Of a DNA stretch of 64,000 nt, positions 30,598 to 30,655 are shown piece by piece. A program made the position numbers and the translations under genes. Positions within the stretch are counted from its first letter, which is position 1. Each line of letters starts with the position of its first letter. Location: NCBI RefSeq assembly GCF_054482525.1, contig NZ_CM137006.1. One strand, given 5' to 3'. Below the pieces are notes generated by a model. The model did not search any database. It was not told where the DNA came from and saw only the letters and a program-made list of their open reading frames with translations.

Positions 30598-30655
30598 CGA
30601 TGCCTGACACGTCTTATCAGGCTACAACCGTGTCGCATCCGACAAGGCATCAGAT
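30598..30655. repeat. REP/BIME-like extragenic palindromes between narU and narZ
   Basis: GCCTGACACGTCTTATCAGGCTAC and inverted partner GCATCCGACAAGGCATC resemble REP consensus. Confidence 0.45.

Follow-up and report, generated by a model that had tools for sequence, protein, structure and literature searches.

REP and BIME elements, together with their variation from strain to strain, are textbook features of E. coli. In Ton-Hoang et al. 2012 (PMC3333891), which follows the Bachellier/Gilson scheme, the units are classed as y, z1 and z2 and their combinations as BIME-1, BIME-2 and atypical BIMEs. BIME-1 joins z1 and y through a long L linker that carries an IHF site, and BIME-2 joins z2 and y through a short S linker, usually in tandem copies. 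REPs are described as stabilisers of the mRNA upstream and as partial, Rho-dependent attenuators; expression is biased towards the upstream gene, the more so the better the REP sequence is conserved, and REP325 is proposed to stabilise the upstream mRNA and to limit read-through (bioRxiv 10.64898/2026.03.23.713779). According to Liang, Rudd and Deutscher (2015, as cited in PMC12306157), a REP no more than 15 nt from a stop codon reduces translation of the gene upstream. The narUZYWV genes are taken as one operon in the literature; all five increase in concert through a mutation that lies upstream of narU, and their regulation has lately been tied to ciprofloxacin adaptation (PMC11417348).

The window analysed here is a stretch of 64,000 nucleotides from contig NZ_CM137006.1 (assembly GCF_054482525.1), and it contains two candidate sites of this family, one between narU and narZ and the other between yddE and nhoA. 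Its segment 30400-30800, which spans the narU-narZ junction, is 100% identical to E. coli PCN033 and is found in 5,402 of 5,426 complete E. coli genomes. Gene coordinates were obtained by moving the PCN033 annotation by an offset onto the identical stretch of the window, with the open reading frame list alongside, and the four gene names of the original prediction (narU, narZ, yddE and nhoA) are correct by this transfer. In the same annotation narZ is followed by narY(H), narW and narV(I), and the gene order at the locus is the same in K-12. The genes and sites that frame the two elements are as follows.

29204-30592, + strand: narU, nitrate/nitrite transporter, TAA stop at 30590-30592 (PCN033 annotation transfer, open reading frame list, sequence)
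30670-30679, + strand: narZ Shine-Dalgarno sequence GGAGCAGGAG (sequence)
30687-34427, + strand: narZ, nitrate reductase Z alpha subunit (PCN033 annotation transfer, sequence)
37420-38313, + strand: yddE, stop codon at 38311-38313 (PCN033 annotation transfer)
38397-39242, − strand: nhoA, stop codon at 38397-38399 (PCN033 annotation transfer)

On the + strand between 28800 and 31200 no sigma-70-like promoter is found, which leaves room for an RpoS promoter, and the narU-narZ junction (30593-30686) contains no terminator-like site. A hairpin UCCUG-GAG-CAGGA at 30664-30680 pairs part of the narZ Shine-Dalgarno region; it is present in the minimum-energy folds of the window and K-12 spacers, and its sequence is conserved across all aligned Escherichia junctions. 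Upstream of the operon, from yddG to narU (about 25000-29200; L002 3647-7492), the window carries an ompC-like porin gene and genes for leucine-rich-repeat proteins, in place of which K-12 has yddL, yddK and the pseudogene yddJ. A search of the whole window with Rfam at the gathering threshold returned a single element, a SECIS_3 selenocysteine insertion element at 23034-23092 on the − strand (84.3 bits), which by its position presumably belongs to fdnG.

The element between the convergent genes yddE and nhoA (38321-38384) is an intact, canonical BIME of two REPs. A pair of REP-like palindromes had been predicted there at 38321-38386, and the inverted repeats, the strong folds, the y profile and Rfam naRNA4 all confirm it.

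38321-38349, + strand: z1-like REP GCCTGATGCGCTTCGCTTATCAGGTCTAT (matches to head and tail motifs; hairpin of -11.5 kcal/mol, z = -3.0)
38350-38384, − strand: y REP GTATGCCGGATAAGGCGTTTACGCCGCATCCGGCA, reading TGCCGGATGCGGCGTAAACGCCTTATCCGGCATAC on the − strand (y profile, naRNA4, hairpin, inverted repeat I1)

The two units stand tail to tail, with the z-type unit on the + strand beginning 7 nt past the yddE stop codon and the y unit on the − strand lying 12 nt from the nhoA stop codon. A y profile built from copies at other loci matches 38350-38384 with E = 1.2e-12, and the z2 profile matches the z1-like unit with E = 0.054. The repeat finder reports inverted repeats of 13-15 nt at this site. 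The y REP alone forms a hairpin of -21.9 kcal/mol (z = -5.3), and RNA of the 83-nt spacer folds with -34.5 kcal/mol (z = -5.2 for the + strand and -4.2 for the − strand). Rfam naRNA4 (RF02564) scores 39.9 bits on the y REP (E = 4e-6), which is below the gathering score of 59.5, as is expected for one unit of a 77-nt model. A 161-nt query from the spacer matches a median of 24 places per E. coli genome.

The linker of this BIME has a length of 0 nt in the window, where the tails abut, whereas in K-12 and most E. coli it consists of 12 nt (ACAACCGGGCTA); the form present in the window is found in about 570 of about 5,470 records at identities of at least 95%. An equivalent BIME is present between yddE and nhoA in E. 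albertii and E. whittamii. With regard to class, the element contains no long linker of the IHF-binding L type that characterises BIME-1, and in comparison with BIME-2 its z unit is of the short z1-like form and the element is single-copy. With its z1-like unit and short linker it is not a BIME-1, and it is best regarded as an atypical BIME rather than a BIME-2. When transcribed, it would furnish both mRNAs with stable hairpins at their 3' ends, at most 15 nt from the stop codons.

For the narU-narZ junction, two REP-like palindromes had been predicted at 30598-30655. The assignment to the REP/BIME family is right here (z2 profile, E = 4.3e-5) as it is at yddE-nhoA, and the sequence is REP-derived; the part that does not stand is the count of two palindromes, as the site consists of one truncated z2 REP plus half of a y REP. 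The element is thus likely to be the decayed relic of a z2-linker-y BIME. The 94-nt spacer (30593-30686) reads GAGATCGATGCCTGA^CACGTCTTATCAGGCTAC-AACC-GTGTCGCATCCGACA-AGGCATCAGATCC..., with the following parts.

30595-30605, + strand: 5' arm of an outer inverted repeat, GATCGATGCCT, pairing with 30645-30656 (folds of the window and K-12 alleles)
30602-30625, + strand: truncated z2-type REP, GCCTGA^CACGTCTTATCAGGCTAC, in the CTAC-tail orientation (z2 profile, exact 13-mer, comparison with paralogues and orthologues)
30626-30629, + strand: AACC, remnant of a tail-to-tail BIME linker (CTAC-AACCG junction at other REP loci)
30630-30644, − strand: head arm only of a y REP, GTGTCGCATCCGACA, reading TGTCGGATGCGACAC on the − strand (orthology with intact y REPs)
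30645-30656, + strand: 3' arm of the outer inverted repeat, AGGCATCAGATC (folds, lineage alignment)

An nhmmer profile made from three intact z2 copies found elsewhere has its best match in the whole 64 kb at 30598-30625 (E = 4.3e-5, profile positions 10-38). The z2 tail 13-mer CGTCTTATCAGGC is exact in 30602-30625, with 0.07 matches expected at up to one mismatch, and the tail motif CTTATCMGGYCTAC, with up to one error allowed, occurs three times in the 64 kb, namely here and in both REPs of yddE-nhoA. The CTAC foot is found at 30622-30625, where the tail is one C shorter than the consensus GGCCTAC. The junction CTAC-AACCG that follows recurs at ybcF-purK, in the yddE-nhoA BIME of K-12 and, as AACGGTGTCGCCTCC, in E. 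albertii.

The REP at 30602-30625 has a length of 24 nt; relative to intact z2 copies, 12 nt are deleted from its head arm and loop. The stem that it forms by itself has 6 bp (-8.2 kcal/mol) and falls short of the imperfect palindrome of 30-40 nt, folding into a stem-loop with an internal mismatch, that characterises a REP. The second unit, at 30630-30644, is at chance level against the y profile by sequence alone (E = 23), and it is not a palindrome, its GTAG foot and partner arm being deleted; its REP origin follows from the orthologous intact y REPs of E. albertii and the E69 lineage, which end in ...GCCGCATCCGACAAGGCATCAG. The repeat finder reports no inverted repeat of 8 nt or longer in the junction, and Rfam naRNA4 (RF02564) returns nothing there even at E values up to 10. 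Only remnants of both units of a BIME are therefore present in the window (30595-30656), and their tail-to-tail order (z, AACCG..., y) is recognisable across lineages. Per E. coli genome, a 101-nt query from the junction has a median of 1 matching place, which becomes 29 when the missing 12 nt are added to the query.

The feature table of NC_000913.3 (MG1655) lists no REP features even at yaaX-yaaA, where a regex scan gives two intact REPs, so that a missing REP annotation is uninformative. The supplements of the RepRanger and Ton-Hoang papers do not mention narU, narZ, yddE or nhoA, and the paper on NarS, the sRNA from the narK 3'UTR, mentions neither a narU counterpart nor a REP at narU.

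Orthologous junctions were collected by searching one genome of each species with a pattern for the narU C-terminus, which gave four other Escherichia lineages.

E. whittamii: z REP intact (GCCTGGTAAGACGCTCGCTCGTCTTATCAGGCCTAC), half-y as in E. coli
E. albertii: z REP decayed, linker AACGGTGTCGCCTCC, then an intact y REP (GTAGGTCGGATAAGGCATTAACGCCGCATCCGACA)
E69 lineage: almost no z REP, y REP intact
L006 lineage: z-like and y-like stretches, unclassified, with an extra 125-bp BIME-1-like insertion directly past the narU stop

The flanks GAGATCGATGCCTGA and CATCCGACAAGGCATCAGATCCC are common to the aligned junctions, and Rfam naRNA4 scores 32.7 bits on the E. albertii junction and 24.8 bits on that of E. 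whittamii. Because intact z or y REPs are present in other lineages between shared flanks, the sequences suggest that the Escherichia ancestor probably had a full z2-linker-y BIME at narU-narZ, of which pieces were lost by lineage-specific internal deletions. This ancestral element fits the BIME-2 pattern z2-S-y, which is not intact in the window. In the proposed course of decay, the lines leading to E. coli and E. whittamii would have lost the body of the y REP, the lineage of the window would have lost 12 nt of the z2 REP, and the K-12 lineage would independently have lost about 25 nt of it. In E. albertii, two imperfect direct repeats, GTCGCCTCC and GCCGCATCC, bound the segment of the y deletion, which joins the repeats GTCGC/CTCC and GCCGC/ATCC. 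The four lineages outside E. coli are 88-95% identical to the window and about equally diverged, and the polarity of the y REP change (loss versus gain) is therefore read from the sequence signature, together with outside knowledge of how the Escherichia lineages are related.

Two decayed alleles are found in E. coli. The window type accounts for about 1,860 records (among them CFT073, SE15 and PCN033), and the K-12 allele (K-12, O157:H7), which is 13 nt shorter, for about 3,574. Queried with a hypothetical intact allele, none of the 5,426 complete E. coli genomes yields an intact narU-narZ copy. The TG of the head GCCTGATG is still present in the K-12 allele and missing from the window allele; neither allele can thus derive from the other by simple deletion, which indicates independent deletions. 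Excision by TnpA(REP) between the iREP I/II cleavage sites was considered as the origin of the K-12 allele and rejected, because it predicts GCC/TAC and the observed join is GCCTGATG/TAC.

Several further features of these junctions were observed. In the L006 lineage, which is labelled E. coli SCPM-O-B-8794, the extra element of about 125 bp (L006 657-797) lies at the GATC past the narU stop and comprises a y-like REP, a long linker (AAAATCGTGCAAATTCAATACA...) and a z1 REP, with inverted repeats TGATGACAAA...TTTGTCATCA at its flanks; judged by its sequence, a BIME-1-type element appears to have inserted into the BIME already resident there. The intact z REP of E. whittamii (L009 488-528) has a head arm altered to GCCTGGTAAGACG, an almost exact complement of the tail, so that the usual stem mismatch is gone. 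narU-narZ is also present on two contigs of metagenome-assembled genomes (L010 and L011, labelled 'Bacillota bacterium' and 'Citrobacter sp.'), with an identity to the window of 97.7-98.8%. The junction allele is that of K-12 in one and that of the window in the other, and both look like E. coli contigs that were binned wrongly.

The junction RNA of the window folds with -20.4 kcal/mol over 66 nt (z = -2.5, in a range of -1.8 to -2.5), and the main feature of the fold is the outer stem GAUCGAUGCCU/AGGCAUCAGAUC, beginning 2 nt past the narU stop. The K-12 allele forms a single tidy hairpin of -19.7 kcal/mol (z = -3.6), and the junctions of E. whittamii and E. albertii fold with -31 kcal/mol (z = -4.2) and -40 kcal/mol (z = -5.1), respectively. 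A hairpin past the narU stop can be folded in every lineage examined, with the outer stem, of which the lower part is absent from the E69 fold. The hairpin is followed by AGAUCCCAAUUCAUUCC and thus has no U-tract, which indicates that it is not an intrinsic terminator. The relic is predicted to be transcribed within the narUZYWV message, where the REP hairpins would no longer form and a modest composite hairpin would take their place. At most, this hairpin may slightly shield decay intermediates that end at narU from 3' exonucleases and slightly hinder ribosomes that terminate at the narU stop. Because the relic retains few of the sequence features that known REP activities require, its structure and evolution suggest that it is most likely near-neutral, any effect on narU mRNA or translation being weak at best.

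An alternative is that the narU-narZ palindromes still work as a regulator within the operon, stabilising the upstream narU message or attenuating read-through and so setting different levels of narU and narZYWV. Intact REPs do act in this manner: REP325 stabilises yjdM and partly terminates transcription before yjdN, tandem gene pairs with a REP between them show upstream-biased expression, and the REP at the iscR 3' end is cited in the same role. A hairpin of about -20 kcal/mol also persists at narU-narZ, 2 nt past the stop codon. However, the upstream bias rises with REP conservation, and the narU-narZ copy is among the least canonical, with no Rfam match and a REP stem of 6 bp. The REP bodies have been lost differently in each lineage, the structure that remains is weak (z about -2), the junction has no terminator-like site, and the promoter region upstream of narU raises all five genes together, all of which makes a working regulator unlikely. 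It is distinctly unlikely that the elements act at the level of DNA, as gyrase sites, TnpA(REP) substrates, or hot spots of recombination and insertion. Gyrase cleavage sites are over-represented in BIME-2, with a preference for y REPs (PMC6379681), and PMC3333891 reports that TnpA(REP) binds and cleaves REP/BIME DNA and that BIME linkers and copy numbers differ between strains; indels of linker or body are indeed found between strains at both loci, and one Escherichia lineage (L006) carries an additional BIME-1-like insertion at narU-narZ. Nevertheless, the gyrase enrichment was shown for the BIME-2 subset and not for single atypical BIMEs or relics (PMC6379681), and TnpA(REP) requires an intact hairpin with its mismatch and a GTAG, whereas the narU-narZ relic has neither the full hairpin nor the mismatch. 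By its features, the y REP of yddE-nhoA could be open to such a role.

The outer stem formed by GATCGATGCCT and AGGCATCAGATC, rather than the REPs, might also be what is selected, as a stop-proximal RNA structure that adjusts how much NarU is made or flags a site of processing; a hairpin past the narU stop would then be kept while REP sequence turns over inside it, and the allelic series would shift the ratio of NarU to nitrate reductase Z. K-12, the window, E. whittamii and E. albertii share the same outer arms around an interior that ranges from 25 to 70 nt, and the 5' arm, which begins 2 nt past the narU stop, has a sequence common to K-12, E. whittamii, E. albertii and the E69 lineage. The outer stem is present in the minimum-energy folds of four of five variants, and the reported effect of stop-proximal REP structures on translation of the upstream gene (Liang 2015, as cited in PMC12306157) points in the same direction. 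On the other hand, the arms are invariant and so offer no covariation in the stem, and in the E69 lineage a change of GATC to GAGC removes the lower stem from the fold. The flanks of an internal deletion are conserved by construction, and the 5' arm overlaps the head of the z REP. Retention of the outer stem could accordingly reflect selection or the mere geometry of the internal deletions, and we consider selection of the hairpin very unlikely. Were it true, the ratio would be expected to shift between E. coli phylogroups and Escherichia species, along a series of intact z, intact y, window and K-12 alleles. Finally, the narU-narZ palindromes might be chance sequence unrelated to the REP family, since the second element (30630-30644) is at chance level against the y profile and the junction has no inverted repeat of at least 8 nt. 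However, the z2 profile gives its best match of the window here, the tail 13-mer is exact, and the junction is 86% identical over 48 nt to the ybcF-purK BIME. Intact REPs at the orthologous position in three other Escherichia lineages refute a chance origin, which is hardly credible. The reading of the junction as a decayed BIME relic is therefore retained.

Two other REP-like sites were observed in the window. A perfect palindrome with a 9-bp stem, GCCGGATGA-CACG-TCATCCGGC, lies at 14344-14368 and fills the 34-nt gap between two convergent open reading frames with stops at 14339 and 14374; it has a REP-like head and no GTAG/CTAC foot. The sequence GTAGG^ACGCGGCATCCGGC at 7552-7575 resembles a y REP without its first arm and overlaps the stop codons of two convergent open reading frames. 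The y profile matches it with E = 4.3, and it could be another relic or chance.

The narU-narZ and yddE-nhoA elements are both of already known kinds, and the value of the locus is modest: it provides a worked example of BIME decay, in which five orthologous junctions carry different internal deletions of one presumed ancestral z-linker-y element between flanks that are kept. The narU-narZ junction also offers a ready natural allelic series for relating REP integrity to expression within an operon.

A comparison with the described systems places the two elements within the REP/BIME family in different states. The yddE-nhoA element shares with the family the inverse, tail-to-tail REPs, the feet of GTAG/CTAC type, the extragenic position and dozens of near-identical relatives per genome. 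The narU-narZ element shares the z2 tail with CTAC, the linker start AACC(G) and the y head arm, and it differs in that neither unit is a full palindrome and the stem mismatch bound by TnpA(REP) is missing. Its closest paralogue in the genome is the ybcF-purK BIME (L004 1493-1651), in which a z2 REP, CTAC and AACCGGTGCCGCATCCGGCA follow one another and z2 is likewise fused to a half-y; there, however, the z2 units are intact and repeated, the sequence reads GCCTGATGCGACGCTTGACGCGTCTTATCAGGCCTAC-AACCGGTGCCGCATCCGGCA, and a full y REP follows. REP325/naRNA4 (yjdM-yjdN, RF02564) resembles narU-narZ in lying between tandem genes of one operon, but it is a multi-copy array of canonical units, whereas the narU-narZ relic has no match to RF02564. 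With respect to stop-proximal REPs, the effect is known for intact REP hairpins, whereas the structure at narU-narZ is weakened and any stalling there is putative; the distances to the stop codons are similarly short, at 2 nt for the narU outer stem, 9 nt for its z REP, 7 nt for yddE and 12 nt for nhoA. Judged by sequence features, the narU-narZ relic has few of the requirements of the known REP activities listed here, and the yddE-nhoA BIME has those of all of them.
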